NCBI GenBank assembly: GCA_037443365.1
Contig: JBBIOM010000044.1
Span: 1 to 13,371 of the forward strand
Origin: Armatimonadota bacterium
GTDB taxonomy: Bacteria > Sysuimicrobiota > Sysuimicrobiia > Sysuimicrobiales > Humicultoraceae
Length of the DNA: 13,371 nucleotides
Direction of reading: 5' to 3'
Shown here: positions 34-13,371 of the stretch, one piece after another
Numbering within the stretch: position 1 is the stretch's first letter
Layout: every line of letters begins with the position of its first letter
Made by a program: the position numbers and the translations under genes
Notes under the pieces: generated by a model
What the model saw: only the letters and a program-made list of their open reading frames with translations
Database searches by the model: none
What the model was told of the DNA's origin: nothing

Positions 34-666
34 CTATCCTTCCTCCTGGCAGAGGCCCGTCAGATGCGCGGTGCTGTTGAGCGCTATCACGCGGGGCGCC
101 GGGGTGCCCATCTCGATGACGTTGATGCACGCGCTGCCCTGCGCGATCCGGGTGTGATGTGAGAGCGGCGCGCCCAGGCACTCCAGAAGAATCGTCTTGT
201 TGACCCCGCCGTGCGCGACCACGGCGATCGCCTGGCCTGCGTGCCGCGCGGCCAGGGCCCCGATCGCGGTCACCGCGCGCGATTGCACCCCTGCCATGGT
301 CTCGCTGCCTGGAAAGGTGGACTCAACGGGCGAGTCGCGCCTGGCCTGTATGGGCCGGCCGTCGTTGTCCCTGACCTCTGACATCAGGCGGCCCTCCCAT
401 TCTCCCTGGGACATCTCCCGCAGTCCGGGCACGGTGTGTAGGAGCAGCCCGTGCGCGGCGGCTATGGGCTCGGCCGTGGCACGGGCCCGGCCGAGCGGGC
501 TGGAGTAGACCGCAACAAGAGGAACCGCGCGCAACGCCTCGACCAACCCGCGCACCTGCTCTCGCCCGCGAGCGCTCAGGGGCGCATCCAGGGTTCCCTG
601 CAGGCGCCCTTCGGCGTTCCAGGTGGTCTCGGCGTGGCGGATCAGGTAGATGACCGTGGAATGCAT
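34..666 (-). CDS. Histidine phosphatase (phosphoglycerate mutase-like; CobC/GpmB/PspA branch), ~210 aa
   Basis: The translation has LIRHAETTWNAEGRLQG (RHG-type phospho-His motif, here RHA), SSPLGRARATA, LREMSQGEWEG and VVAHGG (second His). I moved the start from the ORF-track 744 to ATG 666, just upstream of the motif; GTG 675 is an alternative. Confidence 0.9.
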   Translation of the reverse strand: MHSTVIYLIRHAETTWNAEGRLQGTLDAPLSARGREQVRGLVEALRAVPLVAVYSSPLGRARATAEPIAAAHGLLLHTVPGLREMSQGEWEGRLMSEVRDNDGRPIQARRDSPVESTFPGSETMAGVQSRAVTAIGALAARHAGQAIAVVAHGGVNKTILLECLGAPLSHHTRIAQGSACINVIEMGTPAPRVIALNSTAHLTGLCQEEG

Positions 667-678
667 GCGACGCACATC

Positions 679-687
679 ATGATAGCA
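679..687 (-). promoter_or_regulatory. Putative extended -10 promoter element (TGcTATCAT) for the histidine phosphatase
   Basis: The minus strand reads TGCTATCAT, matching TGnTAnnnT, 12 nt upstream of ATG 666. No good -35 and no SD are present, consistent with a very short leader. Confidence 0.4.
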
Positions 688-768
688 GGTTCTTACCCCT
701 CGGCGGCGTATAGAAAGGCAACTCGCACCGCCGGCCCCGAGCACCCGGCGCCTTTGGAGGGATGTCGC

Positions 769-1719
769 CTGGCCTCATACCTGACCCGACGGCTGTTGCT
801 GGCCGTTCCTACAATGCTGGGTGTGCTGATTGCGGTCTTCCTGCTCATCCGGCTGGTCCCTGGCGATGTCGTGACACAGATGATCGGGCTCGAGGGGAGC
901 CTGCGCGAGGGGCGGGTGGAAGAGCTGCGCCAGCTGTTTGGCCTGGACAAGCCTCTCCACCACCAGTTCGCGGAGTACATCGCGAAGGTCGGACGGGGAG
1001 ACATGGGCAAGTCGCTGCGGACCGGCCGACCCGTCGGCGGCGAACTCGCGCGGCGCTTTCCGGTGACGGTGCAGCTGGCGCTGATGGGCCTGCTGGTCGC
1101 GCTGACAATCGGCATCCCGGTTGGAATAGCGGCCGCTCTGCGGCGCGGGAGGGCCGGTGACTACCTGGCCACGGGCTTTGTCATGCTGGGACTCTCGGTC
1201 CCCTCGTTCTGGCTCGGGGTCCTGCTCATCCTGCTGTTCGCCCTTCGCCTGGGCTGGCTCCCGCCCACCGGCTACATCTCACCGGCCGAGAGCCTGGTGG
1301 CGAACCTGCGCCACATGGTGCTGCCGGCGTTATCGCTGGGCATGGTGCTGGCCGCGGCCATCACCCGCATCGTGCGCAGCAGCCTGCTCGAGGTTCTGGC
1401 ACGGCAGTACATCCGGACCGCGCGCGCCAAGGGCCTGGCGGAGTCGGCGGTCATCCTGAGGCACGGCCTTCGCACCGCCCTGATCCCGGTCGTGACCGTG
1501 ATCGGCCTTCAGTTCGGCACGCTGCTGGGCGGCACGGTCATAATCGAGCAGATCTTCAGCCTGCCGGGCATCGGGCGGTTCGCGCTGGAGGGGATCAACC
1601 TGCGCGACTACCCGGTGATCCAGGGAGCCGTGCTGTCCATCTCCCTGTCCTTCGTGCTGGTCAACCTGTTCGTGGATCTCCTCTATGGCTTCCTCGACCC
1701 TCGTATCCGATACCAGTAG
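769..1719 (+). CDS. ABC transporter permease, DppB/OppB/NikB family, ~316 aa
   Basis: It has the typical N-terminus (x)ASYLTRRLLLAVPTMLG...IRLVPGD, then GLDKPLHHQF, GDMGKSLRTGRPV, the EAA-loop YIRTARAKGL and the C-terminal RDYPVIQG...LDPRIRY. The start is placed at CTG 769, 8 nt after GGAGG (756-760); TTG 754 is the alternative. Confidence 0.93.
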   Translation: MASYLTRRLLLAVPTMLGVLIAVFLLIRLVPGDVVTQMIGLEGSLREGRVEELRQLFGLDKPLHHQFAEYIAKVGRGDMGKSLRTGRPVGGELARRFPVTVQLALMGLLVALTIGIPVGIAAALRRGRAGDYLATGFVMLGLSVPSFWLGVLLILLFALRLGWLPPTGYISPAESLVANLRHMVLPALSLGMVLAAAITRIVRSSLLEVLARQYIRTARAKGLAESAVILRHGLRTALIPVVTVIGLQFGTLLGGTVIIEQIFSLPGIGRFALEGINLRDYPVIQGAVLSISLSFVLVNLFVDLLYGFLDPRIRYQ

Positions 1720-2569
1720 CTGGTCCCCGACGCCGCGGGCTAGCGCCGGGACGCGGCTGGCGCGGCATGTGGGCGCCCGCGTCGGCGGCGCGCTGCTGCT
1801 CGCGGTCCTGGTCGGGGCGGTCGGTGCCCCGGTGCTCACCCGGCACGACCCGGTGGAGATCGCTCCAGTCCGCAGGCTGCAGGGCCCCAGCGCAGCGCAC
1901 CCATTGGGCACCGACATGTACGGCCGGGACACGCTATCGCGCGTGCTGCACGGCGGGCGCGTCTCGCTCGCGGTCGGAGCGCTCGCGGTCGGGCTGGCGC
2001 TCGCGGTGGGAGGGAGCATCGGCGTGGCGTCGGGGTTCCTGGGCGGCTGGGCAGACACGCTGGTGATGCGGCTGTCGGACGTCCTGCTGGCCTTCCCGGC
2101 GATCCTGCTCGCTATCGCGCTGTTGGCGTTCCTGGGGGGCGGTTTCTGGAACGTGGTGCTGGCGATCGCCATCGTTTACACTGCGCCGTTCTCGCGCGTG
2201 GCGCGGGCCGCCGTGCTCACGGTGCGGCACGAGGAGTACGTGGACGCGGCCCGCGCCATCGGGGCGGGGAGCACCCGGATCCTGCGGCGGCACATCCTCC
2301 CAAACGCGATCGCGCCGCTGATCGTGGAGTGCACACTGCGCCTGGCGCTGGCGATACTCGCCGAGGCCGCCCTCTCGTTTCTGGGGCTGGGCACTCAGCC
2401 GCCGACGCCCACCTGGGGGCAGATGATCGCCGAGGGCCGCGCTGTGATGACCTTCAGCTCGTGGCCGGCGATAGGACCCGGGATCGCGATCAGCGTAACG
2501 GTACTGGGATTCAACCTGCTGGGAGACGGCATTCGTGACGCCCTTGATCCTCACACGCACGGTGCTTAG
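1685..2569 (+). CDS. ABC transporter permease, DppC/OppC/NikC family
   Basis: Motifs are HPLGTDMYGRDTLSRVLHGGRVSL, EEYVDAARAIGA, RHILPNA, LSFLGLGTQPPTPTWGQMI and GFNLLGDGIRDALDP. The start is uncertain: ATG 1685 overlaps the upstream gene by 35 nt, and GTG 1769 is possible. Confidence 0.93.
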   Translation: MASSTLVSDTSSWSPTPRASAGTRLARHVGARVGGALLLAVLVGAVGAPVLTRHDPVEIAPVRRLQGPSAAHPLGTDMYGRDTLSRVLHGGRVSLAVGALAVGLALAVGGSIGVASGFLGGWADTLVMRLSDVLLAFPAILLAIALLAFLGGGFWNVVLAIAIVYTAPFSRVARAAVLTVRHEEYVDAARAIGAGSTRILRRHILPNAIAPLIVECTLRLALAILAEAALSFLGLGTQPPTPTWGQMIAEGRAVMTFSSWPAIGPGIAISVTVLGFNLLGDGIRDALDPHTHGA

Positions 2570-2613
2570 CAGTAAGTAGAAGGACACACCACACAACGAA
2601 GGAGGAGACCGCA

Positions 2614-4167
2614 ATGCGCACCATGGTTATGCTTCTCTGTGCAGGCCTGTTGGTTGCGGCCGGCTTCCAGCCGTCCGTGGCCCAGACCTCGGGCCCGCGC
2701 TACGGCGGAACGCTGCGCGTCGGGATGCAGGGCGACCCGGTCGGATTGGACCCGCACCTTACCACGGCGACGTTAAGCCGCAACATGATGGAAAACGTCT
2801 ATGACACGCTGGTGTTCTACAGCGCGGACGGCCGGTTCGTCCCGGGCCTGGCCGAGTCGTGGACGGTGTCGCCGGACAACCTGGTGTGGACCTTCAAACT
2901 CCGGCGCAATGTGAAGTTCCACAACGGGAGACCGATGACGTCCGAGGACGTCGTCTACACCATCAACCGCATACGCGATCCAAGGACACGGGCGCCGCGC
3001 GCCGGGGACTTTGCGGACGTAGACACCGTGACCGCGCCGGATCCGTACACGGTGGCGTTCAAGCTCAAGAAGCCCTACAGCCCGTTGATCGCCAAGCTCT
3101 CCCACTCTGTGTGGGCCGCGATCGTGCCGCGAGAGGTGGTAGAGAGAGACGGGGACCTGCACACCAACCCGATGGGCACCGGGCCGTTTCGGTTCATCGG
3201 CTACACCCCGCAGCAGCGGCTCACCCTGGTACGCAACGGCGACTACTGGGGCTTCGACGAGACGGGACGACGGCTTCCATACGTAGACCGGATCGAGTTC
3301 GTCTTCTACCCGGATGCGATCGCACGCACCACCGCGCTGCGCACCGGTACGGTGGATTTCATCGAGTACGTTCCCTCATCGGAGGTGCGCGCGCTCCGGG
3401 CCGACCCGAACGTGGAAGTACTGGGCGGGCCCTCGGCCAACTTCCGCGCGATCTACATCAACTGCGCGGTTGCCCCGTTCAACAACGTCAAGGTGCGGCA
3501 GGCCCTGGCCTGGTCGGTCAACCGCAAGGAGATCATCGACACCGCCCTGTTCGGCGTCGGCGGCATTGAGGCGACCGGCAGCGTGATCCCTCCGGGCAAC
3601 TTCTACGCGCTGTCGAAGAACGTCTACGACAAGCCCGACATCGACCGTGCGAAGCGTTTGCTGGCCGAGGCCGGGCACCCCGGTGGGGTTGACGCCGAGT
3701 TCTACGTCACCACCACATACGACTTCCTGCGCACGCCCGCGGAGGTCATCCAGGCGCAGGCGGCCCGCTCGGGCTTCCGGCTCCGCATCGTGGCCGCGGA
3801 CTGGAGCGTCTACCTTCCCACGGTGTTCGCAAAGCGGTACGTGCTCACGCTCCTGGGCACCTCCGGGCAGGTTGACCCGGACGACTACCTCTTCAACAAC
3901 TTCCGGACCGGCGATGCGCGCAACTACGTGAACTTCTCAGACCCCGTCTTCGACAGGCTGGTCGAGGAGGGCCAGACCGTATCCGGCGAGGCGCAGCGCA
4001 AGCGCATCTACGACCAGGCGCAGATGCGGCTGCAGGAGATGGTACCGATGGTCTTCCTGTTCCACTCGACGACATACGAGGCGGTGCGGAAGTGGGTCCA
4101 GGGCTTCGAGCACTGGCCCAACCAATCGTACTACGGCCTGCGCCGCACCTGGATGGTGGCACGATAG
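2614..4167 (+). CDS. ABC transporter solute-binding protein, family 5 (DppA/OppA/NikA-like), 517 aa, Sec signal peptide
   Basis: A strong SD (AAGGAGG) precedes ATG. A hydrophobic signal peptide ends SVA|Q. Motifs include GGTLRVG...LDPH, PGLAESWTVSPD..WTFKLR..VKFHNG, GTGPF and PFNNVKVRQAL. Confidence 0.95.
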   Translation: MRTMVMLLCAGLLVAAGFQPSVAQTSGPRYGGTLRVGMQGDPVGLDPHLTTATLSRNMMENVYDTLVFYSADGRFVPGLAESWTVSPDNLVWTFKLRRNVKFHNGRPMTSEDVVYTINRIRDPRTRAPRAGDFADVDTVTAPDPYTVAFKLKKPYSPLIAKLSHSVWAAIVPREVVERDGDLHTNPMGTGPFRFIGYTPQQRLTLVRNGDYWGFDETGRRLPYVDRIEFVFYPDAIARTTALRTGTVDFIEYVPSSEVRALRADPNVEVLGGPSANFRAIYINCAVAPFNNVKVRQALAWSVNRKEIIDTALFGVGGIEATGSVIPPGNFYALSKNVYDKPDIDRAKRLLAEAGHPGGVDAEFYVTTTYDFLRTPAEVIQAQAARSGFRLRIVAADWSVYLPTVFAKRYVLTLLGTSGQVDPDDYLFNNFRTGDARNYVNFSDPVFDRLVEEGQTVSGEAQRKRIYDQAQMRLQEMVPMVFLFHSTTYEAVRKWVQGFEHWPNQSYYGLRRTWMVAR

Positions 4168-4189: not shown

Positions 4190-4807
4190 GTGAGGATCGT
4201 CGCCGTCGTGGCAGCAGTGGTGGCACTGGTGCTTGCCGGCTCGCTGGCGGCGGCCGTGGACGCGGCCGCCCCGAAGCTCGTCGTCAAGGGCGATGCCAAG
4301 GCCTGGGCGGAGATCGCCGCCGCGATGACCAAGCTACAGAAGCTCAAGTCCTACCGGGCCAAGGGAACGGTAGCGGGTCCAACAGGCGCCATGGTCACCC
4401 TGATGGAAGTGATGAACCCCGGCAGCTTCTACTCCAAGACGACGGTGGGCGGGAACACCGTCGAGGTGATACAGGTTGGGACCGCGGTCCGCATGCGGAC
4501 CGGGAGCGGTGCGTGGATCTGCGACACTCAGCAGCGAGACCAGCTCGGCGCGGATCCCGAGAAGATGTGGGGTGAGGTAACCGCGGCCCGGGGCCCGGCG
4601 GAGACCATCGCGGGCATACGGACCCAATCCTACACCTTCGTGTGGAAGAACGACATAATGACCACGAAGAACCGGCTGTTCGTGGCGACCACCGACGGCC
4701 TTCCCCGGCGCGCGCAGGTTCTGGGCGACGACGGCTCGGTGACCATGACAACCGACTACTACGATTTCGACGCGCCCATCAAGATAGCGCTGCCGCCGTG
4801 CAAGTAA
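4190..4807 (+). CDS. Exported hypothetical protein, possibly LppX/LprAFG- or LolA-like beta fold, 205 aa
   Basis: AAGGAGG precedes a GTG start. The protein has an Ala/Val-rich signal peptide, a helix followed by LKSYRAKG, alternating beta-strand patterns and a C-terminal TDYYDFDAPIKIALP resembling LppX/LprA-like proteins. The fold is inferred. Confidence 0.75.
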   Translation: MRIVAVVAAVVALVLAGSLAAAVDAAAPKLVVKGDAKAWAEIAAAMTKLQKLKSYRAKGTVAGPTGAMVTLMEVMNPGSFYSKTTVGGNTVEVIQVGTAVRMRTGSGAWICDTQQRDQLGADPEKMWGEVTAARGPAETIAGIRTQSYTFVWKNDIMTTKNRLFVATTDGLPRRAQVLGDDGSVTMTTDYYDFDAPIKIALPPCK

Positions 4808-4821
4808 GGCCTTGAAGCCAG

Positions 4822-4860
4822 CGGGGCGTTCCTGGGACTCGCCGTGCCCGGGACGCCCCG
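4822..4860. terminator. GC-rich hairpin between convergent genes, probable bidirectional terminator
   Basis: CGGGGCGTTCC-T-GGG (4822-4836) pairs with CCC-GGGACGCCCCG (4847-4860), with one G-U pair, one bulge and a 10-nt loop. It lies between the stops at 4807 and 4862. There is no U-tract on either side. Confidence 0.6.
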
Positions 4861-4861
4861 G

Positions 4862-6496
4862 CTAGCCTCCACCCGTGGTGCCCCGGGCGCCCCCGGCATC
4901 AGGGATTGCAGCGTGCTCCTCGATGATGCGCGCCACCAGGTCCATGGGCACGTCGCCCCGCACCTCTCCTTCCCCGACCCTGACGGGAAGCACGAAGCGC
5001 AGGCTCGCTCCCTGCCGCTTCTTGTCGCGCCAGAGCGCCTCGGCCAGGCGGGAGGTCGCCACGCCCGAGAAGTCGGTGGGCAGGCCGAACCGCCTAAGGA
5101 GGGCGGTCTGACGGTCCTCTAGAGATCCGGCGGCGATCCCCATCGCCACCGCGACCCGGGCGGCCAGCGTCATGCCGATGGCCACGGCCTCGCCGTGCGT
5201 GTACCGATGGAACCCGGTCGAGGACTCGATCGCGTACCCGAAGGTGTGCCCGTAGTTGAGGAGCATGCGCCGGCCCTCTCCCTGCTCGTCCTCCTCCACG
5301 AAGCGCGCCTTGATGCGCAGGCACCGCTCCACGAGTTCGGGCATGAGGCGGCTGCCCTCGTCCAGCAGGTCCGCGGCGTGTGCCTCGAGGAACGCGAACA
5401 GGTCGGCATCGGCGATCACACCGTACTTCACGGACTCCGCCAGCCCCGCGCGCAGAGACCGCAGGCCGACACCTCGTATCGCCGCCACGTCCACGAGGGC
5501 CACCCGTGGATGGTGGATGATCCCAATGAGGTTCTTGGCGCGGAAGTGGTTGAGGGCCGCCTTGCCGCCGACGCAGCTATCGATCTGCGCGAGGAGCGTG
5601 GTCGGGACGTGCACGATAGGAATGCCTCGCATGTAGGTGCCGGCGACGAAGCCCGCGGCGTCGAGCACCTCCTCTCCTCCCATCGCGACCAGGCATCCGG
5701 TTCGATCAACCTCCTCACGGACGAGCCGGCCGTAGAGCCCTCCCGCGCTCTCCCAGGTCTTGACGCCCTCCCCGGCGGAGACCTCGATGAGGACTGGGTC
5801 CAGGCCTGCTCCATTGAGCGCGTCGCAGGCCTGCTCGCCGTAGCGGCGCGCCGCAGCGGGAGAGGCCAGAATCGCGGCTCGCCCCGAGAGATCGGCCTCG
5901 CGGGCGTAGTACCCCAGGAGGCCGAGGATGCCGTCTCCTACCACCGCGCGGTACGGACGCGCCCCGCTCGGGCTCACGCCGATCGCGGCGACGGGCTCGC
6001 GTTCGGCCAGGAACGCCAGGACACGGCGCATGACGCCGTCCAGGTCTTCGTTGCCCACGTCGATCACCAGGTCGGCCGACATGTACTTGCCCGAACGCCT
6101 CCCCCAGAGCCGCTCCAGGTTCTCCAGCACCCGGCCCCTGAGCAGCGGCCACTGATCGGCGCGGCCCACTCGCCGGGCGATGACCTCCGGAGACGCAACG
6201 AGCGCCACAAGCCAACCCCAGGCCCGCAGGGCAGCCAGGTTCTGCTCCCGCTCCACGACCCCGCCCCCGGTGGCGACCACGCCGGGTGACTGCGTCACCT
6301 CGGCGATCAGCGCCTCCTCGAGGGCGCGGAAGTGGGCCTCGCCGTGCCTTTCGAATATCGAGGAGATCGCCGCGTCCTCGCGGCTCTCGATCAACTCGTC
6401 CGCGTCCACGAAGGGCAGACCCAGCACGAGCGAGAGCTCCCGGCCGACCGTGCTCTTCCCGGTGGCCGGCATCCCTATCAGGGCGATGTTCCTCAC
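4862..6496 (-). CDS. aroKB: Shikimate kinase / 3-dehydroquinate synthase (AroK-AroB) fusion-like protein, ~544 aa, with atypical active-site residues
   Basis: The N-terminal kinase domain has GMPATGKST (P-loop), FVDADE, IFERHGEAHFRALE and ATGGGVV. The C-terminal DHQS domain has GEGVKT, TYMRG, VPTTLLAQIDSCVGGK, KNLIG, AESVKYG, LLNYGHTFG, HGEAVAIG and DKK. The start is GTG 6496, 9 nt after GGAGG; ATG 6532 is an alternative. The ORF-track extension to 7063 is spurious because it overlaps the upstream gene. Confidence 0.9.
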   Translation of the reverse strand: MRNIALIGMPATGKSTVGRELSLVLGLPFVDADELIESREDAAISSIFERHGEAHFRALEEALIAEVTQSPGVVATGGGVVEREQNLAALRAWGWLVALVASPEVIARRVGRADQWPLLRGRVLENLERLWGRRSGKYMSADLVIDVGNEDLDGVMRRVLAFLAEREPVAAIGVSPSGARPYRAVVGDGILGLLGYYAREADLSGRAAILASPAAARRYGEQACDALNGAGLDPVLIEVSAGEGVKTWESAGGLYGRLVREEVDRTGCLVAMGGEEVLDAAGFVAGTYMRGIPIVHVPTTLLAQIDSCVGGKAALNHFRAKNLIGIIHHPRVALVDVAAIRGVGLRSLRAGLAESVKYGVIADADLFAFLEAHAADLLDEGSRLMPELVERCLRIKARFVEEDEQGEGRRMLLNYGHTFGYAIESSTGFHRYTHGEAVAIGMTLAARVAVAMGIAAGSLEDRQTALLRRFGLPTDFSGVATSRLAEALWRDKKRQGASLRFVLPVRVGEGEVRGDVPMDLVARIIEEHAAIPDAGGARGTTGGG

Positions 6497-6554
6497 GACG
6501 AAAGCCCTCCGGGACCGGGGCCTCTGGCGCATGGCCACCCCGTTGTTGCGAGAG

Positions 6555-6563
6555 AGTATACCA
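6555..6563 (-). promoter_or_regulatory. Extended -10 promoter element (TGgTATACT) upstream of aroKB
   Basis: The minus strand reads TGGTATACT, a near-consensus TGnTATAAT, in the intergenic gap about 58 nt upstream of the GTG start. Confidence 0.6.
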
Positions 6564-6564
6564 C

Positions 6565-6589
6565 GCGCGGCGGTCAGCCAGGGCCGCGC
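6565..6589 (-). terminator. Hairpin immediately after the citryl-CoA lyase stop, possible terminator or 3' stabiliser
   Basis: GCGCGGC (6565-6571) and GCCGCGC (6583-6589) form a perfect 7-bp stem with an 11-nt loop. There is no clear U-tract. Confidence 0.35.
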
Positions 6590-7434
6590 TATCCTTGGGG
6601 AGGCTCCGTGAGGTCTCGCTTCGGGACGCCCGTGTAGGTGTAGCCGGCCTCGGGCGGGACCGGCCCCTTGATGCGGCCTCCCTGCTGTCTCTGCTCCCAG
6701 GCATGGGCGAGGATGCCCGCGGCCCGCGAGAGAACGAAGAGGCCGCGGCCGAGTGCCGGCGGAAAGCCGAGCTCGGAGAAGACAACCGCGGTGACGCCGT
6801 CTATGTTCATTGGGATCCGAATGCCCTTGCGCCTCTCGATGGCGGCTTCGACGGCGCGGCCGATGCGCGCGAACCTGCCTGTGACCGTGCCCCGCTCCTC
6901 GGCCCTGGCGATGAGCTCCAGCAGGCGCACGGCACGGGGGTCGGTGTGGTGAAAGCGGTGTCCAAACCCGGGCACGAAGGCGCCTGAACCCAGGCGGTTC
7001 AGCTCCTCCTCGACCACCTCGTCCAGGAGGCGTCCTCCGCCGCCCGGACCCCGCTGGTCGCATCCCGCCGCGATGGCGGCGTAGAGCTCCATCGCCTGCT
7101 GCCCCGCGCCGCCGTGGATGTCGCCCAGGGAGTTGACCCCCGAGGCCACGGCGTTGTTGAGGGGGAGTCCGCAGGTGACCGACATCCGCGCGATCGCAAT
7201 GGACGGGGCCTGCGGACCGTGGTCCACCGAGGCCACGAGCGCGGCCTCCAGCAGCGCGGCCTGGTCAGGGGACGGCAGCTCTCCGCCGAGCAGCAGCCAG
7301 ATCATGGCTGGGAAGCTGATCGAGCCGATGAGCTGCTCGATCGGGTACCCCCTGATGGCTATCTGGCCCGGGGCGATGTCGATGATCGCCGTCTGCCACC
7401 ACGCACGTGATGGATCGTTGGCCTGGTCCGTCAT
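6589..7434 (-). CDS. Citryl-CoA lyase-like protein (short citrate synthase family), 281 aa
   Basis: Motifs are [43 protein letters not shown] and [13 protein letters not shown], retaining the citrate synthase His/His/Asp/Arg residues. It lacks the large N-terminal part of a true citrate synthase. It has a GGAGG SD and an ATGA overlap with the CoA-transferase. Confidence 0.88.
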
Positions 7435-8633
7435 ATCGCCCCCTCCACACGCAGCCCGGCGATCTCATCTTCGGAATAGCCGAGATTCCTGAGCACCTCG
7501 TCGGTGTGCTCGCCCAGGCGCGGCGGCGGGCTCCCGGCAGTGGGGCGCCAGCCCGATATCCTGAACCCGGTGGTCGCGATCGCGATGCCGCACCCGACGC
7601 CGGGCGCCTTGTCGAACTCCTGTATGAGCCCCCGCCCTGCGATCTGCGGGTGGGCCAGGATCTCGGGCACCGAGAGCACCCGGCCGGCCGGAACCCCGGC
7701 CTGGTTCAGCAGTGGCTCCCACTCGGCCGCCGTGCGCGCGGCCAGGGCGGCTTCGATCTCGGCGCTCAACACGGCGCGGTGGCGCAGGCGATCTTCCCTC
7801 CGCGCGAACCTGGGATCCCCTACCAGGTCCGGGCGCCCCACCACGCGGGCGAGAGCCTCGAACTGCTCCTGCTTGTTGGCGGCGATGTTGAGCAGGCCGT
7901 CCCGCGTGCGGAACGCGCCCGACGGGCTCGCGGTGAAGTTGTCGTTGCCCATGGGCCTGGGGTGCTCGCCGGCGATCAGGTAGTTCGAGACGATCCACCC
8001 CATGGACAACAGCGTCGCCTCAAGCATGGAGACATCAATGAAAGCGCCCCTGCCGGTCTGCCGGCGCGCGAGCAGCGCCGAGGTGATCGCGAACGCCGCG
8101 GTGAGCCCTCCGATGGTATCGCATATCGGAAACCCTGTCCGCAGCGGCCCGGTCTGCTCGCTGCCGGTGAGGCTCATCGCCCCTGAGAGCCCCTGGATGA
8201 TCTGGTCGTAGGCGGGGTTGTCCCGCATCGGGCCGTCGCTTCCGAATCCGGAGATCGCGCAGTAGACCAGGCCGGGGTTCGTGCGGGAGAGATCGTCGTA
8301 GCCCACGCCCAGGCGCACCATCGCCCCGGGCCGGAAGTTCTCCACCAGCACATCCGCGGTCGCCACGAGCCGCTCGAACACGGCGCGGCCCCGGGCGTGC
8401 TTGAGGTTCAGCGTGACCGACCGCTTCGCGGCGTTCTGGGCCAGGAACGACGCGCCCATCAGCCGCTGGTTCAGCGCCGCGTCGGCGCCGAGCTGCCGGG
8501 CCAGATCGCCCGTCCCGGGCACTTCCACCTTCATTACCTCGGCACCCACCAGCGCAAGCTGGAAGGAGCAGAACGGGCCTGCCAGCACGTTCGTGAGGTC
8601 GAGGACCCTGATGCCCTCAAGCGGACGCTGCAC
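7431..8633 (-). CDS. Class III CoA-transferase (CaiB/BaiF/Frc family), 400 aa
   Basis: Motifs are [74 protein letters not shown], the catalytic Asp in PICDTIGG and the C-terminal [12 protein letters not shown]. Confidence 0.95.
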
Positions 8634-9345
8634 GGGCGGAAGCCCTTTCGTCGAATGGCTTTCGGTCGCCGCCCAGCGCGGCGGTCAGGTCCGCTGCGGC
8701 GCGCATGAGCGCCAGTGACATGCGCTTCACTGCCGCCGGTCGAAACCGGTAGAGCGGACCTGACAGCGACAGCGCCCCGACGAGCTCCTGCCCCACGCGG
8801 AAGACCGGGCAGGCGACAGCCGCGGTCTCGGGGTTACGCTCTCCGAAGGAGGCGGCGATCAGGTCACGGCGGACGAGTGCGAAAGCAGCGCCCTTGGCCC
8901 CGCCAAGCGCCAGAAGCACCCTCCCCGCCGCCCCGCGATCCAGCGGAAGGTGGTCGCCCTCGCGCACGTGATCGCGGATCGGCGCCGGGGAGTCCACGCG
9001 GTGGAGACAGACGCGGACCGCGCCGTGGCGAACGTAGAACGAGGCGCTCTCGCCACTGTCGTTGGCGAGATGGCGCAGGACCGGCACGACACGGCCGGCC
9101 AGGGAAAACCCGCGCTGGTAGAGGCTACCGAGGCGCATGGGCGTGGGGCCCAGCCGGTACCTGCCGTCGGAGACCCGCCAGAGGTAGCCGTACCTCTCCA
9201 GCGACGCGCACAGGCGCAGGATGGTGCTCTTGTACATCCTCGTGCGCGCGGCGATCTCGGCCAGGGTGAGGCCGTCGTCGCCCTCGCGGAAGGCGTCGAG
9301 GATGGCAAGCGCGCGCTCCACCGCCGCCACGCCGCTCGTCTTCAC
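8617..9345 (-). CDS. IclR-family transcriptional regulator, 242 aa
   Basis: The N-terminal wHTH reads [14 protein letters not shown]...[30 protein letters not shown]...YRLGP. The effector domain has [17 protein letters not shown] and AAVACPVF...[10 protein letters not shown]. It starts at GTG and overlaps the CoA-transferase by 17 nt. Confidence 0.95.
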
Positions 9346-9387
9346 GGCTTCAACCGTGCCCTCATCCTGGAGTAATGAGGCACGCCG

Positions 9388-11115
9388 TCACCAGCGGTAG
9401 ATGTCGTTGATGTCCCAGTGACCAGCGGTCGGGACTGGATCGTTCACCATCGGCACGTCTATGACCGTTGGCCTTCCACTTCCTAGCGCTGCGGCAAGGG
9501 CCGGGGCCAGGTCGTCGGCCCGCTCTATCCGCACACCCTCCGCGCCGTAGGCGCGCGCGAGCGCCGCGAAGTCCGGGCTGTAGGGCTGCCCGGCGCACTG
9601 GAACTCGCAGCCGAAGGTGCGGCCGTAGTGGGAGCCCATCAGCCCGGCGATCGTGCCGTGGGCGCTGTTGTTCATCACCACCCAGACCACGCCGATGCCC
9701 TGCTCGACCGCCGTCGCGAGTACCGACGGGTTGGCGCTGAAGGCGCCGTCGCCCACCATCGCGAGGCACGGAACGTCGGGCCTCGCCAGCTTGGCGCCGA
9801 GTGCCGCCGCGGGGCCGTATCCCATGGTCGCCAGGCCGCCCGGCGGAAGGTGGGTCCGCGGCAGGTAGATCGGGAACTGCTGGCCGACCCCGTTCTTGTT
9901 CCAGCCCACGTCGGTGACCAGGACCCCCTCCCTGGGAAGGGCGGAACGGATCTCGGCCAGGATGCGCTGCGGCGCCAGCGGAAACGACGAGGAGCGCGAG
10001 GGGCCCTCGAGGCCGGCCAGCCAGGCCTGCCGCTCCGACTGGATGCCGGCGAGCCCTGCGTGGCCGTCTCCTCCGCCCGCCGATTTCTCGCGCAGCGCGG
10101 AGAGGATCGCGCGCAGCCCGGCCCGCGCGTCCGTGACTGCCCCCACCGCCACGGGGAACGAGCGGCCGATCTCCTGGGGGTCTATGTCAAGGTGTATCAA
10201 CTCGGTCGGAGGGATGGCGAAGGTGAATCGCGGATCCCACGAGCTGGAGTCGGCCTCGGCAAAGCGGGTCCCGACCGCCAGGATCAGGTCGGCCTCGCGC
10301 GTCACGCGGTTGGTCAGCTCGGTCCCCCAGAACCCGGTCATTCCGAGAATGAGCGGATGGTCGTCAGGCAGCGCGCCCTTGCCCATCAGGGAATAGGCCA
10401 CGGGCGAGCCGAGATGCTCGGCAACGAGCCGCAGCTCCTCCGAGGCCCCAGACGAGATCACCCCTCCTCCGGTGTAGATGACCGGGCGGCGCGCTGCCAA
10501 CAGCCGCCGCGCGATCTCCTGGGCGGCGCCGGAGTCCAGCCCTGGAGGAGCCAGCGGGGCCGGTGGCTCAGGGGCAGGCCCCTCGGCAGCCATCGAGAAG
10601 ACGTCCATCGCCACGTTGATCAGCACCGGCCCGGGCCGGCCGCTGGTGGCCAGGCTGTAGGCGCGCGGCAGGATGCGCGAAAGCCCGCGCGGATCTGCCA
10701 CCCTCCAGGCCCGCTTCACGAACGGACGGAAGACCTCCCACTGGTCGCCGTCGGTGTGGTACTGGATCTCCTGGTGCGGGTGGCGGCCGTAGAAGTAGCC
10801 GGGCACATCGCCCGCGATCACCAGCAGCGGGATCGAGTCCAGCGCCGCGTTTGCCACGCCGGTGGCGGCGTTGGTCAGGCCTGGTCCCAGATGCGTCATC
10901 AGGACACCGCAGCGCCCGGACGCCCGCGCATAGCCCTCGGCCATGTGCGCCGCGATCTGCTCGTGGCGCGTCATGACAAAGCGCATCCGGCTGTCGGCGA
11001 GCGCGTCGAGGAGCGCGATCACCGTGTGACCGCAGAGCCCGAAGACGTACTCGGTTCCTGCACCCTCCAGGAATCGCACAATCTGGTGCGCGACGTTGTG
11101 CTGCTTGGTTCCCAT
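9388..11115 (-). CDS. Thiamine-diphosphate-dependent enzyme, acetolactate synthase large subunit / IolD / cyclohexanedione hydrolase superfamily, ~575 aa
   Basis: Motifs are VFGLCGH, RHEQIAAHMAEGYAR (catalytic Glu), GPGLTNA, GRPGPV, HLDIDPQEIGR, DVGWN, GGLATMGYG and the ThDP motif GDGAF...VMNN. ATG 11115 lies 10 nt after GGAGG; TTG 11124 is too close to the SD to be the start. Confidence 0.93.
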   Translation of the reverse strand: MGTKQHNVAHQIVRFLEGAGTEYVFGLCGHTVIALLDALADSRMRFVMTRHEQIAAHMAEGYARASGRCGVLMTHLGPGLTNAATGVANAALDSIPLLVIAGDVPGYFYGRHPHQEIQYHTDGDQWEVFRPFVKRAWRVADPRGLSRILPRAYSLATSGRPGPVLINVAMDVFSMAAEGPAPEPPAPLAPPGLDSGAAQEIARRLLAARRPVIYTGGGVISSGASEELRLVAEHLGSPVAYSLMGKGALPDDHPLILGMTGFWGTELTNRVTREADLILAVGTRFAEADSSSWDPRFTFAIPPTELIHLDIDPQEIGRSFPVAVGAVTDARAGLRAILSALREKSAGGGDGHAGLAGIQSERQAWLAGLEGPSRSSSFPLAPQRILAEIRSALPREGVLVTDVGWNKNGVGQQFPIYLPRTHLPPGGLATMGYGPAAALGAKLARPDVPCLAMVGDGAFSANPSVLATAVEQGIGVVWVVMNNSAHGTIAGLMGSHYGRTFGCEFQCAGQPYSPDFAALARAYGAEGVRIERADDLAPALAAALGSGRPTVIDVPMVNDPVPTAGHWDINDIYRW

Positions 11116-11133
11116 TGATACCAACCCTCCGAG

Positions 11134-12153
11134 CTAACTGACGCGTATGACTGCCTTGGCGAACTGGGCGCCGAGAGCGGCCTCCAGCCCGGCCCCCACT
11201 TCGTCCAGCGGGAATTCCTGCTCGACGAGGTGGCCTGCCCGTAGTCCTCCCTCAATCAGATTGAGCGTCCGGCGGAAGTCGCGGGGGTGGTCGTAGATCA
11301 GTGAGCTGACCAGCGTGACCCCCTCCCGAACAAGGCGCAGCGGCGAGAAGGGCACATCCTCCGCCGTCAATCCCAACAGCACGACGCGCCCGCCCCGGGG
11401 AGCCGACCGGAGGCACCACGCCGCCCCTGCCGCGGCCCCTGAGCACTCGAATAGCGTCGCCGGCTCCCCGGTATCGCGCATGCGCGCTGCGACCGCCTCC
11501 CCAACCTCCTGGCTCATCGGCATCGCCTCGGCCGCCCCCAGCGCCCGAGCCTTCTCCACCCGCCGGGTATCCAGGTCCAGCGCGGTGACCGAGATGCGCG
11601 CGGCGCTCAGCAGGTGCGTGAGCAGGAGCCCTATGGCGCCGCACCCCAGCACCAGGGCGCGGTCTCCCGGGACCAGCCCTGCTGTGGCAAGCGCGTGCAC
11701 CCCCACTGCCAGCGGCTCGGTCATCACAAGGTCCTGGTCTGGGATGGTGTCCGAAGCGACCCAGGCGTGGCTGGCCGGCACGGCCGCGAACTCGGCGAAC
11801 ACCCCGTCCACATTGACACCCAGGACGCGCTTGTTCGGGCACACGGTGCCTTGTCCGCGCCGGCACAGCGCGCACTGGGTGCATGGTATGTTGGGTTCCA
11901 CCACGACCCGCCGGCCCGCCAAGTCGCTAGTGACACCGTCGCCGACCGCGGCAATCCGGCCTATCGCCTCGTGTCCCAGGATCAAGGGGTAGGGCGCTGG
12001 CCGGTGGCCAGCGTACAGGTGCACGTCCGACCCGCAGATGCCAACACGCTCAACCCGGACCAGCACCTCGCCCGGCAGGGGGGCGGGGATCGGAACCTCG
12101 TCCAGGCGCAGATCTCGCGGCCCGTGCAACCGGGCGGCGCGCATTGTGCTCAC
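11134..12153 (-). CDS. Zn-dependent medium-chain dehydrogenase (sorbitol/threonine dehydrogenase-like), probably NAD-specific, 339 aa
   Basis: It has GICGSDVH and GHE (catalytic Zn), CTQCALCRRGQGTVC (structural Zn), and the Rossmann GCGAIG with an acidic residue after beta2 (LDLD). A GGAGG SD is present, and there is a GTGA overlap with the aroD stop. Confidence 0.93.
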   Translation of the reverse strand: MSTMRAARLHGPRDLRLDEVPIPAPLPGEVLVRVERVGICGSDVHLYAGHRPAPYPLILGHEAIGRIAAVGDGVTSDLAGRRVVVEPNIPCTQCALCRRGQGTVCPNKRVLGVNVDGVFAEFAAVPASHAWVASDTIPDQDLVMTEPLAVGVHALATAGLVPGDRALVLGCGAIGLLLTHLLSAARISVTALDLDTRRVEKARALGAAEAMPMSQEVGEAVAARMRDTGEPATLFECSGAAAGAAWCLRSAPRGGRVVLLGLTAEDVPFSPLRLVREGVTLVSSLIYDHPRDFRRTLNLIEGGLRAGHLVEQEFPLDEVGAGLEAALGAQFAKAVIRVS

Positions 12154-12932
12154 GGCTCAACCTCCCGTCTTAGGCCTACGACGCCAAGCAGCCTGTCGGC
12201 GAGAGCCATCTCGATCTGGCCCGGCGCCGAGGCCGCGATCCCAACGGCGAATGTGAGATCTGATCCGAAGTACCCCCCGCCTATCCGGCTGATTGCGCCC
12301 TCGGCGCCCATCGACATCAGAATCGCGGGGATATCGAGGAACGTACGGCGGGCCTCCAGCCCTGCCCCCAGCAGCACAAGGACGTCCTCTGGGGACCTGG
12401 GCATCACCGCTACCTTGGCGACATCGGCCCCTGCTTTGTGCATCGCCCGCAGCGTTGTCAGGAGCGCCTCAGCAGGGGGCGTTCCTTCAAAGTCGTGCCA
12501 GGAGCGTATGACCCCCACCTCGGATCCCATGCACGTTGCTGCAACCTTCTCGGCCAAGGCCGGCTCCGTAGCCATCTCAATATCCACAAGGGCAGGCCGC
12601 CCGGTTGACGCCGCGGCCTCAAGTATGGCGAGCCGATGCACCTCGTCCTGGGGACGGGCCCCACCCTCTTCGTGCCGCCGGTTCGTGAAGATCAGCGGGC
12701 GGCGCGCAGAGGCAGAGAGATCGGCGAGGAGCGCCGGCACCTCGGCGGGCGCCAGGTCCGGGATGAAGTCGGCGCGCCACTCGATGCAGTCCGGGCCGAG
12801 CGCCCCCAGATGCGCGGCCTGTGGGGCCAGCGCCGAGCGCTCTGCTGCGGTCAGCGGCACGCACGTCAGCACCGCCGGCCCGCCCAGCACGCGGTCACCT
12901 ACCCGGATCGGCCTCCTGGCCTGCAGTCGCAT
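12150..12932 (-). CDS. aroD: Type I 3-dehydroquinate dehydratase, 260 aa
   Basis: Motifs are IEWRADF, IFTNRRHEEGG, VDIE, SWHDFEGTP (catalytic His), DVAKVAVMP (Schiff-base Lys), MSMGAEGAISR and SAPGQ. The key motifs look intact. Confidence 0.93.
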   Translation of the reverse strand: MRLQARRPIRVGDRVLGGPAVLTCVPLTAAERSALAPQAAHLGALGPDCIEWRADFIPDLAPAEVPALLADLSASARRPLIFTNRRHEEGGARPQDEVHRLAILEAAASTGRPALVDIEMATEPALAEKVAATCMGSEVGVIRSWHDFEGTPPAEALLTTLRAMHKAGADVAKVAVMPRSPEDVLVLLGAGLEARRTFLDIPAILMSMGAEGAISRIGGGYFGSDLTFAVGIAASAPGQIEMALADRLLGVVGLRREVEP

Positions 12933-12958
12933 CGGCTCGCCCCCTCACGGGCCTGCCG

Positions 12959-13354
12959 CTACCGGCTGGGGTTCTCTCCCGGAGGAGTGTAGGCCCACAG
13001 AAGCACCAGCGGCTCAGTGCCCGTGTTCACGTGCTGGTGCTTGAGGTCCTTCGGCACGAATATCATGTCGTGCTGTCCGAACGGCTGCCGGTTGCCGTCG
13101 GCGTCGACCGCCTCCCCGCTGCCCGAGAGGACCACGTTGATCTCCTCGGACCCGGGATGCTCGTGCAGCGAGCTCGACTCGCCCTGCGGAAAGACGGTTA
13201 TCCCGGCGACCAGGAACTCGGAGCCGCAGATCTCACGATCCACGGTCCGGAACACCTTGCGGCGGAACCCTGGGTTGTCGAGGCCGATCCAGGACTGCTT
13301 GCCCTCGGTGAACGTGCGGATCACCTTGACGCCGGGCTGCTGCTTAACGCTCAT
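12959..13354 (-). CDS. Cupin-domain protein (monocupin, 3His-1Glu metal site), 131 aa
   Basis: Motif 1 is HEHPGSEEINVVLSGSG and motif 2 is DMIFVPKDLKHQHVNTG. A full SD (TAAGGAGG) lies 7 nt before ATG. Confidence 0.9.
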   Translation of the reverse strand: MSVKQQPGVKVIRTFTEGKQSWIGLDNPGFRRKVFRTVDREICGSEFLVAGITVFPQGESSSLHEHPGSEEINVVLSGSGEAVDADGNRQPFGQHDMIFVPKDLKHQHVNTGTEPLVLLWAYTPPGENPSR

Positions 13355-13371
13355 AGCGCACCCTCCTTAGT

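Follow-up and report, generated by a model that had tools for sequence, protein, structure and literature searches.

A conserved gene cluster for the putative oxygen-independent, non-aromatising breakdown of quinate and shikimate in an Armatimonadota genome

The stretch of DNA analysed here (the window) is the whole of contig C44, 13,371 bases from an Armatimonadota bacterium whose genome assembly (G000; 2.22 Mb in 69 contigs, about 70% G+C) is 97.7% complete. It carries a gene cluster, all of it on the minus strand, in which genes of the shikimate-pathway type stand beside those of a thiamine diphosphate (ThDP) enzyme, a CoA-transferase and a lyase; the cluster is proposed below to serve the breakdown of hydroaromatic acids. 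The Pfam scan took in 17 open reading frames (ORFs) of the window. The genes of the cluster, and its continuation on a second contig, are as follows.

12959..13354, minus strand: cupin of 131 amino acids (Cupin_2, 59.7 bits)
12150..12932, minus strand: AroD, type I 3-dehydroquinate dehydratase (DHquinase_I, PF01487, 187.8 bits; TIGR01093, 178.1 bits against a cut-off of 139.3)
11134..12153, minus strand: MDR, Zn-dependent medium-chain dehydrogenase (ADH_N and ADH_zinc_N, both above cut-off)
9388..11124, minus strand: ThDP enzyme of the acetolactate-synthase superfamily (TPP_enzyme_N, M and C)
8617..9345, minus strand: IclR-family regulator (HTH_IclR and IclR_C)
7431..8633, minus strand: family III CoA-transferase, CoAT (CoA_transf_3, 406 bits)
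6589..7434, minus strand: citryl-CoA-lyase-like protein, CCL, a short protein of citrate-synthase fold (NF004864 'citryl-CoA lyase', 410 bits against a cut-off of 261)
4862..6496, minus strand: AroK-AroB fusion (SKI, DHQ_synthase and DHQS_C domains; TIGR01357, 295 bits against a cut-off of 305)
13317..13371, no strand: contig end, identical to the start of contig C9 (exact 55-base suffix/prefix match)
C9:77-1486, cluster strand, outside the window: acylating aldehyde dehydrogenase of 470 amino acids
C9:1486-2955, cluster strand, outside the window: TctA
C9:3499-4533, cluster strand, outside the window: TctC

From the cupin gene through the CCL gene the gaps are 26, -4, 9, 42, -17 and -4 nt, the aroD and MDR genes overlapping by 4 nt. 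A first-pass annotation, made from the letters of the window, had described these as seven co-oriented genes no more than 42 nt apart, and re-derivation of the coordinates, families and spacings confirmed the description in every particular. It had missed the AroK-AroB fusion, which lies 92 nt downstream of CCL on the same strand and starts with a GTG codon at 6496, preceded by GGAGGG. A scan of positions 4700-13371 returned no promoter-like sites and two terminator-like sites, both on the opposite strand and not above what shuffled sequences give.

The first-pass annotation had advised looking past position 13371 for transporters, aroE and an aldehyde dehydrogenase. A transporter (Tct) and an aldehyde dehydrogenase are indeed present on C9, and the genome searches found no aroE. 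When C44 and C9 are joined, the end of the aldehyde dehydrogenase gene would fall 38 nt before the cupin gene; the C9 genes have 88-93% identity to proteins of G002, another genome of the genus (tblastn on G000). In G002, G004, G005 and G006 the order is uninterrupted: gyrB-gyrA-M50 peptidase-TctC-(TctB)-TctA-aldehyde dehydrogenase-cupin-AroD-MDR-ThDP-IclR-CoAT-CCL-AroKB. The window contains most of a cluster on the scale of twelve genes, comprising TctCBA, the acylating aldehyde dehydrogenase, the genes from cupin through CCL, and then AroK-AroB. Since the same order is kept in these four further genomes of the genus and in the loci L084, L086, L087 and L169, the arrangement is not a product of chance.

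The conservation of the linkage was examined from two of its members. The MDR scan compared an alignment of six orthologues with one genome per species and gave 101 relatives, for which 80 loci were kept. The full eight-gene order is found in L084, L086 and L087 (MDR 57-61% identical), and the metagenome locus L169 keeps the same gene order; three more loci of the MDR scan resemble members of the genus and were left out of the independent cases. A Streptosporangiaceae metagenome-assembled genome (MAG), L094, holds AroD, an AroK-AroB fusion, a TIM-barrel protein, MDR, CCL-CoAT-IclR, an aldehyde dehydrogenase (Aldedh) next to ThDP, and an ABC transporter. The arrangement is CCL-IclR-CoAT beside Aldedh-MDR-ThDP-cupin-transporter in a Clostridia MAG (L096), CCL-CoAT-IclR followed at some remove by MDR-ThDP-transporter in the cultured Rugosimonospora africana (L107), and AroD-MDR-ThDP, in that order between MFS transporters, in L191. 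The scan for the ThDP enzyme used metagenome contigs and an alignment of six orthologues with a mean column identity of 72%. It recovered at least 568 relatives, of which the best 80 loci were kept (53-76% identical; G+C 0.39-0.71). Partner genes were called by tblastn with the window proteins and with proteins from Pfam-annotated loci, and were counted in the 31 of these 80 loci that extend at least 4 kb to each side of the ThDP gene, as follows.

Acylating aldehyde dehydrogenase, 25/31; ordinary Aldedh, 4/31; both, 0; either, 29
CCL, 13/31; HMG-CoA-lyase-like protein, 15/31; both, 0; either, 28
AP_endonuc_2 TIM-barrel protein, 19/31; cupin, 4/31; both, 0; either, 23
AroE-type dehydrogenase, 20/31; AroD, 10/31; both, 8; either, 22

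The AroE-type proteins pass the shikimate-dehydrogenase cut-offs and the AroDs of these loci pass TIGR01093. A CoA-transferase gene is found in 10 of the 31, including all four with an ordinary Aldedh; an IclR gene stands beside the module in 15, and the transporters are of the TRAP (14), Tct (5) and MFS (6) types. Among the 'minimal' loci without AroD or AroE, L178 and L180 contain a type II dehydroquinase and L174 a pyrroloquinoline quinone (PQQ) dehydrogenase of 902 amino acids, so that the same ThDP gene is accompanied by two non-homologous dehydroquinases and three kinds of dehydrogenase. Cultured organisms are also represented. Plasmid pAZKH of Azoarcus sp. KH32C has an IclR gene beside genes for an HPPD-like protein, a sugar-phosphate isomerase/epimerase, a CoA-transferase, a citryl-CoA lyase, a ThDP-binding protein, a shikimate dehydrogenase and type I aroD, and Nonomuraea gerenzanensis and Streptomyces sp. 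NBC_01450 carry the Aldedh/CoAT/CCL version. The analogous replacement of dehydroquinases, dehydrogenases, lyase folds and routes to the CoA ester indicates that it is the chemistry which is conserved, and not the particular proteins. The first-pass annotation had named a lack of conserved linkage in other genomes as grounds for refuting its proposal, and this comparison did not refute it: in the neighbourhoods of ThDP orthologues, aro-type and lyase partners recur in many unrelated contigs. One minimal ThDP locus, L173, continues (9549-12045) with an IolC-like kinase-DUF2090 fusion and an IolB/KduI protein, both from the inositol pathway.

The ThDP enzyme is proposed to be the C-C cleaving ring opener and the signature gene of this family of clusters. 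The catalytic glutamate (E55) and the GDG...NN motif (G458-D-G460 and N485-N486) are invariant in six orthologues, and the orthologues are 53-77% identical across phyla. It falls below every NCBIfam cut-off, which marks it as a subfamily of its own. The first-pass annotation had likened it to IolD and to cyclohexane-1,2-dione hydrolase (CDH), ThDP enzymes that open cyclic diones. That specific likeness was not borne out: compared with solved structures, the enzyme scores 283.7 bits with BbmA, 258.1 with acetolactate synthase (Escherichia coli ALS), 217.7 with glyoxylate carboligase (Gcl) and 169.5 with CDH (2pgn), and IolD lies outside the best 25 of the 51 NCBIfam families matched, the lowest of those 25 scoring 276.8 bits. 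Models of sulfoacetaldehyde acetyltransferase (Xsc) match at 278-298 bits, below their cut-offs of 620-676. In a FastTree phylogeny of 36 ThDP orthologues, drawn without support values, the lyase variants and the ring-preparation variants are interleaved, indicating that these swaps happened several times. The clade that includes the window enzyme is one whose members mostly go with an MDR (7 of 9).

Two enzymes of the cluster could supply a CoA ester. The aldehyde dehydrogenase, examined through its G002 orthologue (93% identical to that of G000:C9), matches SauS at 470.6 bits, AdhE at 359.8 and EutE-type models at 319.9, all below cut-off; SauS is the best NCBIfam match for the aldehyde dehydrogenases of the cluster (448-470 bits, cut-off 600), and among solved structures the closest is that of the acetylating succinate-semialdehyde dehydrogenase 8cei (280 bits). 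By these similarities it is of the CoA-acylating kind, closest to acylating and not to hydrolytic enzymes. The CoA-transferase is nearest to succinate-dicarboxylate CoA-transferases, its best solved relative being human SUGCT (256 bits) and its best NCBIfam match the succinate-glutarate CoA-transferase (289 bits, below the cut-off of 750). The match of CCL to PF00285 is limited to profile positions 162-353, that is, to the C-terminal citrate-synthase domain only, and its best solved relative is the citryl-CoA lyase of Hydrogenobacter (6hxp, 142 bits). The reaction proposed for CCL is the cleavage of a citryl-CoA-like thioester to acetyl-CoA and a 2-oxo acid. The HMG-CoA-lyase-like genes of other variants pass NF004283 (286-301 bits, cut-off 246), and both citryl-CoA lyase and HMG-CoA (3-hydroxy-3-methylglutaryl-CoA) lyase are known for tertiary 3-hydroxy-3-substituted acyl-CoAs, from which they release acetyl-CoA and an oxo compound. 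In the first-pass annotation a CoA-transferase and lyase were to release acetyl-CoA. The lyase half of this recurs in the linkage, while the commonest route to the CoA ester is an acylating aldehyde dehydrogenase, which changes the likely regiochemistry.

The MDR is proposed to be an NAD-dependent quinate/shikimate 3-dehydrogenase. The ligands of the catalytic zinc (C40, H61 and E62), the structural-zinc cysteines (C91, C94, C97 and C105), the Rossmann motif G170-C-G-A-I-G175 and the NAD-type D193 are each invariant in six orthologues, and the best solved relatives (RspB, sorbitol dehydrogenase and threonine dehydrogenase) place it in the polyol-dehydrogenase branch. No Shikimate_dh_N domain was found in it with Pfam or NCBIfam, and it is not a member of the AroE/YdiB family. 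In every orthologue locus listed in the genus, one-genome-per-species and metagenome scans the MDR gene adjoins AroD. The MDR holds the same place and proposed role as AroE/YdiB, next to AroD, in genomes without AroE, and in the order AroD-MDR-AroK in the genus member G007; it differs in being non-homologous, with the MDR fold, a catalytic and a structural zinc, and the NAD-type Asp. The nearest MDR homologues outside the cluster lineages (L088, L090, L091 and L092, at about 10001-11020) are 43-45% identical and come from Bacteroidota/Acidobacteriaceae records; they adjoin MFS transporters, one with Amidohydro_2 and one with a glyoxalase-fold protein, and give no hint of the substrate.

The cupin has an intact His/His/Glu/His metal site, with H64, H66, E70/E71, H106 and H108 invariant in eight orthologues. 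A Foldseek search with its AF2 model (pLDDT 78) matched generic monocupins only (TM1287, KdgF, DddK and sugar-phosphate isomerases), so that no function can be assigned from the fold. With the cupin domain of gentisate 1,2-dioxygenase the similarity is weak, at 29 bits where the cut-off is 442. In the 80 metagenome loci the cupin is found in 5 and the AP_endonuc_2 TIM barrel in 34, never both together. The only solved relatives of the TIM-barrel protein at E<=0.001 are the inosose isomerase IolI (56 bits) and two uncharacterised proteins; it shows no similarity to AsbF or QuiC1 at that threshold and has no NCBIfam match. The mutual exclusion of the cupin and an IolI-like TIM barrel points to isomerase or dehydratase chemistry, and the cupin is proposed to be a ketol isomerase or dehydratase that prepares the ring, analogous to the TIM-barrel protein. 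In agreement with the first-pass annotation, no dehydroshikimate dehydratase or ring-cleaving dioxygenase is recognisable in the window, no such Pfam family being present among the 17 ORFs. In the rest of G000, two queries with TIM-barrel proteins of related clusters gave no match above 45 bits; dioxygenases outside the window were not searched for. ThuA-like proteins (PF06283) occur in L173 (913-1998), L174 (5003-6079) and L180 (2990-4156), beside an IclR gene and the Aldedh-CoAT-CCL-ThDP variant, and may fill the ring-preparing step in that variant, which has neither cupin nor TIM barrel.

AroD is, as far as sequence can show, a dehydroquinase with all the canonical dehydratase residues. The 18 solved relatives with E<=1e-10 are dehydroquinases without exception. 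The Schiff-base lysine K173, the general-base histidine H146 and the substrate-binding E89, R216, S235 and Q239, invariant among 11 aligned sequences, map at a constant offset of +3 onto K170, H143, E86, R213, S232 and Q236 of the Salmonella enzyme. It is also the sole dehydroquinase found in G000, with one PF01487 match and no PF01220 match. The AroK-AroB fusion is the only copy of dehydroquinate synthase and shikimate kinase in the genome, being the sole PF01761 match and the sole tblastn match to the second fusion of relatives. DAHP synthase, EPSP synthase and chorismate synthase are encoded elsewhere in G000. No AroE was found there, either as a PF08501 or TIGR00507 match (best E 0.004) or with the AroE of the closest cluster-bearing relatives as tblastn query.

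The same pattern characterises the genus. Among 41 related genomes (8 of the genus itself and 33 others), AroE (PF08501) is present in 0 of the 8 and in 31 of the 33, the two misses being 78% and 89% complete. Type II dehydroquinase (PF01220) is a broken remnant in 1 of the 8 and present in 32 of the 33, and type I AroD is present in 6 of the 8 and in 2 of the 33. Two of the other relatives, G015 and G024, are unpublished genomes and positive; leaving them out gives 29/31 for AroE and 30/31 for type II dehydroquinase. The remnant (G004:C19 417-671) consists of two short fragments, at profile positions 1-39 and 103-134, and looks like a decayed aroQ. MDR orthologues, 62-93% identical, are found in all five other genomes of the genus that have type I AroD, and always adjoin it. 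The most divergent member, G007 (73% complete), has gyrBA-M50-AroD-MDR-AroK only; no Tct, aldehyde dehydrogenase, cupin, ThDP or CCL gene was found in it anywhere searched.

With AroD and AroK-AroB present once each and no aroE, biosynthesis must also depend on part of the cluster. AroK-AroB is biosynthetic and a candidate member of the catabolic unit. The absence of AroE, the sole copies of AroD and AroK, and the retention in G007 of AroD-MDR-AroK alone make a good case from context that the MDR acts at C3 of shikimate/dehydroshikimate and probably also reduces dehydroshikimate for aromatic amino-acid synthesis, standing in for AroE in this genus.

Several observations concern the aro genes and the surroundings of the cluster. 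AroK-AroB fusions occur as extra paralogues in L087 (15535-20914), L169 (14559-19859), L111 (10957-14592) and L103 (12496-16104); in L087 and L169 two fusion copies, about 41% identical, flank aroE-aroC beside the cluster, with aroE directly after AroKB, and in actinomycete loci a fusion directly follows a canonical aroC-aroK-aroB(-aroQ) operon. Elsewhere the genus has a second aro operon, which runs MFS - aroC - GNAT acetyltransferase - aroB - chorismate mutase (CM_1) - aroA. Comparison of G000:C27 2056-6746 (L077) with G004:C38 (L080) shows that the canonical aroB is gone in G000, leaving the window fusion as the only AroB. Between CCL and AroK-AroB about 2.9 kb is inserted in L044 (15846-18602), L047 (2022-3434) and L045 (~2006-4058), all genus members; in G002 and G005 this insert holds a called gene for an alkaline phosphatase of 470 amino acids, and the window and G004 are without the insert. 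An ORF of 205 amino acids (4190-4807, plus strand) lies between AroK-AroB and ABC transporter genes, where L087 and L169 have aroE-aroC; it has no Pfam or NCBIfam match and is about 81% conserved in genus member L048 and partly so in L047. Two further elements of the window appear unrelated to the cluster, namely a histidine-phosphatase gene (34-744, minus strand) and, within 34-4167 on the plus strand, a peptide/nickel-type ABC transporter (two permeases and SBP_bac_5).

Taken with the gene families and their context, these features make it somewhat probable that the cluster is one version of a widespread, non-aromatising and oxygen-independent breakdown of hydroaromatic acids (quinate, shikimate and 3-dehydroquinate). 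The substrate would be taken up by the Tct transporter and oxidised by the MDR, quinate to 3-dehydroquinate and shikimate to 3-dehydroshikimate. AroD would interconvert these two, drawing shikimate into dehydroquinate with its tertiary C1 alcohol kept. The cupin, or in other variants the IolI-like TIM barrel, would then prepare the ring, either by ketol isomerisation between C3 and C4 or by dehydration to a vicinal dicarbonyl, and the ThDP enzyme would break the C3-C4 bond to leave an open-chain aldehyde-acid that retains the C(OH)(COOH) centre. The aldehyde would be converted to a CoA thioester by the acylating aldehyde dehydrogenase, or by an ordinary aldehyde dehydrogenase together with the CoA-transferase. 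Finally CCL, or elsewhere the HMG-CoA-lyase-like enzyme, would cleave the citryl-CoA-like ester in retro-Claisen fashion, giving acetyl-CoA and a C5 2-oxo acid. Of the carbons of quinate, C1 alone can give such an ester. Should dehydration remove the oxygen at C5, the ester would be homocitryl-CoA and its cleavage would yield acetyl-CoA and 2-oxoglutarate; should the dione arise by oxidation instead, the oxo acid would be 4-hydroxy-2-oxoglutarate, the C5 4-hydroxy-2-oxo acid of the first-pass annotation. We infer the order of the steps and the regiochemistry from enzyme family and gene order. What stands of the earlier proposal is a catabolic route from quinate and shikimate that avoids protocatechuate and O2, in which a ThDP enzyme would open the ring and a CoA-dependent lyase would release acetyl-CoA from the tertiary-alcohol carbon, supported by the recurrent linkage of ThDP, aro-type and lyase genes; the assignment of its steps needs revision. 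The reverse, biosynthetic direction (acetyl-CoA and 2-oxoglutarate to dehydroquinate) was rejected, because the context is catabolic, with transporters and IclR, LacI or GntR regulators nearby, and because hydrolytic cleavage of a dione is presumably irreversible.

A number of observations weigh against the proposed pathway. The metagenome loci are not phylogenetically independent and the ORF calls in them are crude, and in 9 of the 31 both AroD and an AroE-type gene are lacking. The ThDP enzyme resembles the known ring openers of its superfamily no more closely than it does carboligases and decarboxylases. In the clade to which the window enzyme belongs, L169 alone has an AroE-type gene and only the window type and L094 have AroD, so that the link to hydroaromatic compounds is weaker there; members such as L096 or L185 might act on a related substrate instead. 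The complete metal site means that the cupin could be an oxygenase, and the retention of AroD-MDR-AroK alone in G007 shows that the aro part is separable from the rest of the cluster. A role of the MDR as a general substitute for AroE was rejected, since G041, G042 and G043, which carry the full cluster and lie outside the genus, all have AroE. The route to the CoA ester also varies. Direct formation of the thioester by an acylating dehydrogenase requires the aldehyde at C3, and 20 of the 25 loci with this enzyme are without a CoA-transferase; in Azoarcus a CoA-transferase is present and an aldehyde dehydrogenase is missing from the cluster, as would suit an acid at C3, and the window's cluster has both enzymes. 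No single regiochemistry explains all variants unless some genes are encoded elsewhere.

These points have to be weighed with three other accounts of the cluster. It is unlikely, though consistent with several of the findings, that two units are interleaved here: a housekeeping shikimate operon, AroD-MDR-AroK(B), with the MDR as shikimate dehydrogenase, and an inserted carboxylate module consisting of Tct, the aldehyde dehydrogenase, the cupin and ThDP-IclR-CoAT-CCL. A candidate substrate for such a module is a 2-oxo tricarboxylate, for instance 4-carboxy-4-hydroxy-2-oxoadipate, which would be decarboxylated, oxidised to citrate and split via citryl-CoA. This would account for the sole genome copies of AroD and AroK-AroB in the absence of aroE, for G007, which retains AroD-MDR-AroK without either flanking module, for the abutment of the cluster on AroKB-aroE-aroC in L087 and L169, and for the relatives of the module in L096, L107, L185 and L204 without AroD or AroE nearby. 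Against it, many unrelated contigs in which no further aro biosynthesis genes occur, Azoarcus pAZKH among them, have a ThDP orthologue adjoining AroD, an AroE-type gene, a type II dehydroquinase or a PQQ dehydrogenase, and AroD-MDR-ThDP stand in the same order between the MFS transporters of L191; moreover, losing both modules in the reduced G007 is a more parsimonious history than gaining two precise insertions around AroD-MDR. A pure shikimate-biosynthesis operon with an unrelated insertion was dropped as the principal interpretation on account of the linkage of ThDP orthologues to aro-type genes in unrelated contigs.

The other two accounts retain hydroaromatic catabolism but alter its chemistry. 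The similarity of the ThDP enzyme to BbmA, ALS and Gcl rather than CDH leaves room for a 2-oxo-acid decarboxylase acting on a ring that another enzyme has already opened. The cupin, the TIM barrel or an AroD-type Schiff-base enzyme might, for instance, convert 3-dehydroquinate to 3,7-dideoxy-hepto-2,6-diulosonate in a retro-aldol cleavage. ThDP-dependent decarboxylation, acylating oxidation to the CoA ester and lyase cleavage would follow. ALS, Gcl and decarboxylase families are the nearest to the ThDP enzyme; its pairing with the acylating aldehyde dehydrogenase is the most constant in the loci (25/31) and has the logic of a decarboxylase followed by an acylating dehydrogenase, similar at the family level to SauS-Xsc; and ring-opening cupins of the KdgF type are among the fold matches, although not the best ones. 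However, AroD carries all the canonical dehydratase residues, and the scheme gives a secondary beta-hydroxyacyl-CoA, whereas both lyase families are known for tertiary ones, as would arise from an intact quinate C1; we regard it as improbable. An ordinary aromatising route, in which the MDR and AroD make dehydroshikimate, an unrecognised dehydratase yields protocatechuate, the cupin is an O2-dependent dioxygenase and the ThDP enzyme, CoA-transferase and lyase handle the ring-fission product, seems very improbable indeed. The 3-His/1-Glu-type site of the cupin and its faint resemblance to gentisate 1,2-dioxygenase would suit it, the classical qsu/qui genes are drawn from the families AroE, AroD and AP_endonuc_2, and the HPPD-like gene of Azoarcus lies beside a TIM-barrel gene, as in the fused QuiC1/QsuB. 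Yet the TIM-barrel protein matches IolI and neither AsbF nor QuiC1, no known family of ring-cleavage dioxygenase is present in the window, and the cupin and TIM barrel substitute for each other, where a dioxygenase and a dehydratase would act in sequence.

The non-aromatising pathway proposed here is of a known kind, the O2-independent ThDP-dependent cleavage of an alicyclic ring, and none of the nearest described systems has this gene set. In the catabolism of myo-inositol by Bacillus subtilis (IolG, IolE, IolD, IolB and IolI) a cyclitol is oxidised and a ThDP enzyme opens the ring without O2. The two systems share a cyclitol ketone, a xylose-isomerase-like TIM barrel, ring opening by a ThDP enzyme of the ALS superfamily and a cupin-type protein nearby. 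They differ in that the window enzyme is not IolD-like by NCBIfam, the substrate bears a carboxylate and a tertiary alcohol, AroD/AroE-type genes take the place of IolG, and the cluster ends with a CoA thioester and a Claisen-type lyase instead of a kinase and aldolase. The CDH route of Azoarcus sp. 22Lin, which consists of an alcohol dehydrogenase, the ThDP hydrolase (structure 2pgn) and aldehyde oxidation, likewise oxidises an alicyclic vicinal diol, cleaves a C-C bond with ThDP to an aldehyde-acid and oxidises the aldehyde, all without O2. CDH nevertheless scores 169 bits against the window enzyme, below ALS and Gcl, and we know of no CoA-lyase step in that route.

The classical qui/qsu pathway, made up of quinate/shikimate dehydrogenase, dehydroquinase, dehydroshikimate dehydratase and protocatechuate dioxygenase, has the same entry functions, a C3 dehydrogenase and a dehydroquinase, and AroE-type or AroD genes are present in 22 of the 31 loci; the clusters described here have a ThDP enzyme, an acylating dehydrogenase and a lyase in place of a recognisable dehydratase and dioxygenase, and in the window the dehydrogenase is an MDR. 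With regard to citryl-CoA lyase and HMG-CoA lyase, CCL is nearest to the Hydrogenobacter thermophilus enzyme (6hxp) and an NF004283 protein replaces it elsewhere, but the context of the cluster is catabolic, the partner is a CoA-transferase or acylating dehydrogenase and not citryl-CoA synthetase, and the substrate probably has one carbon more than citryl-CoA. In sulfoacetate degradation the SauS-Xsc pair couples an acylating sulfoacetaldehyde dehydrogenase with the ThDP-dependent sulfoacetaldehyde acetyltransferase. The same two families form a neighbouring pair in the cluster, where the scores are below the cut-offs, sulfonate genes are absent and the partners are aro-type genes and lyases. 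A literature search, for which most subscription journals were outside the scope, found no description of a ThDP-dependent or non-aromatising quinate/shikimate pathway, nor of an MDR-type shikimate dehydrogenase. Within the literature accessible to that search the pathway family is apparently undescribed; an earlier description is possible.

A more comprehensive statement is correspondingly more tentative, and as a whole we consider it rather doubtful: that the clusters encode an oxygen-independent, modular pathway to acetyl-CoA and 2-oxoglutarate or 4-hydroxy-2-oxoglutarate through a homocitryl-CoA-like ester, and that in this genus the MDR and AroD have also displaced AroE and AroQ. Its interchangeable parts would be the dehydrogenase (AroE-type, MDR or PQQ), the dehydroquinase (type I or II), the ring-preparing protein (TIM barrel or cupin), two routes to the CoA ester and two lyase folds. 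The question is directly testable, since the carriers include the cultured Azoarcus sp. KH32C, Nonomuraea gerenzanensis, Streptomyces sp. NBC_01450 and Rugosimonospora africana.

Of the alicyclic acids that plants release, quinate and shikimate rank with the most abundant. In the textbook bacterial route they are converted to the aromatic protocatechuate, beyond which O2 is needed. To our knowledge their mineralisation in anoxic soils, sediments, the subsurface and the gut is poorly explained at the gene level. A ThDP-dependent route to acetyl-CoA and a 2-oxo acid of the tricarboxylic acid cycle would, if true, fill this gap. It would define a new ring-cleaving subfamily of ThDP enzymes, and a function could be assigned to a large family of genes, with at least 568 metagenome relatives, whose present labels are "thiamine pyrophosphate-binding protein", "acetolactate synthase" and "citryl-CoA lyase". 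Within the genus, replacement of AroE by the MDR would be a new instance of non-orthologous displacement, in a core pathway at which herbicides and drugs are aimed, and recognition of the MDR as the stand-in would correct the auxotrophy predictions made for these genomes.

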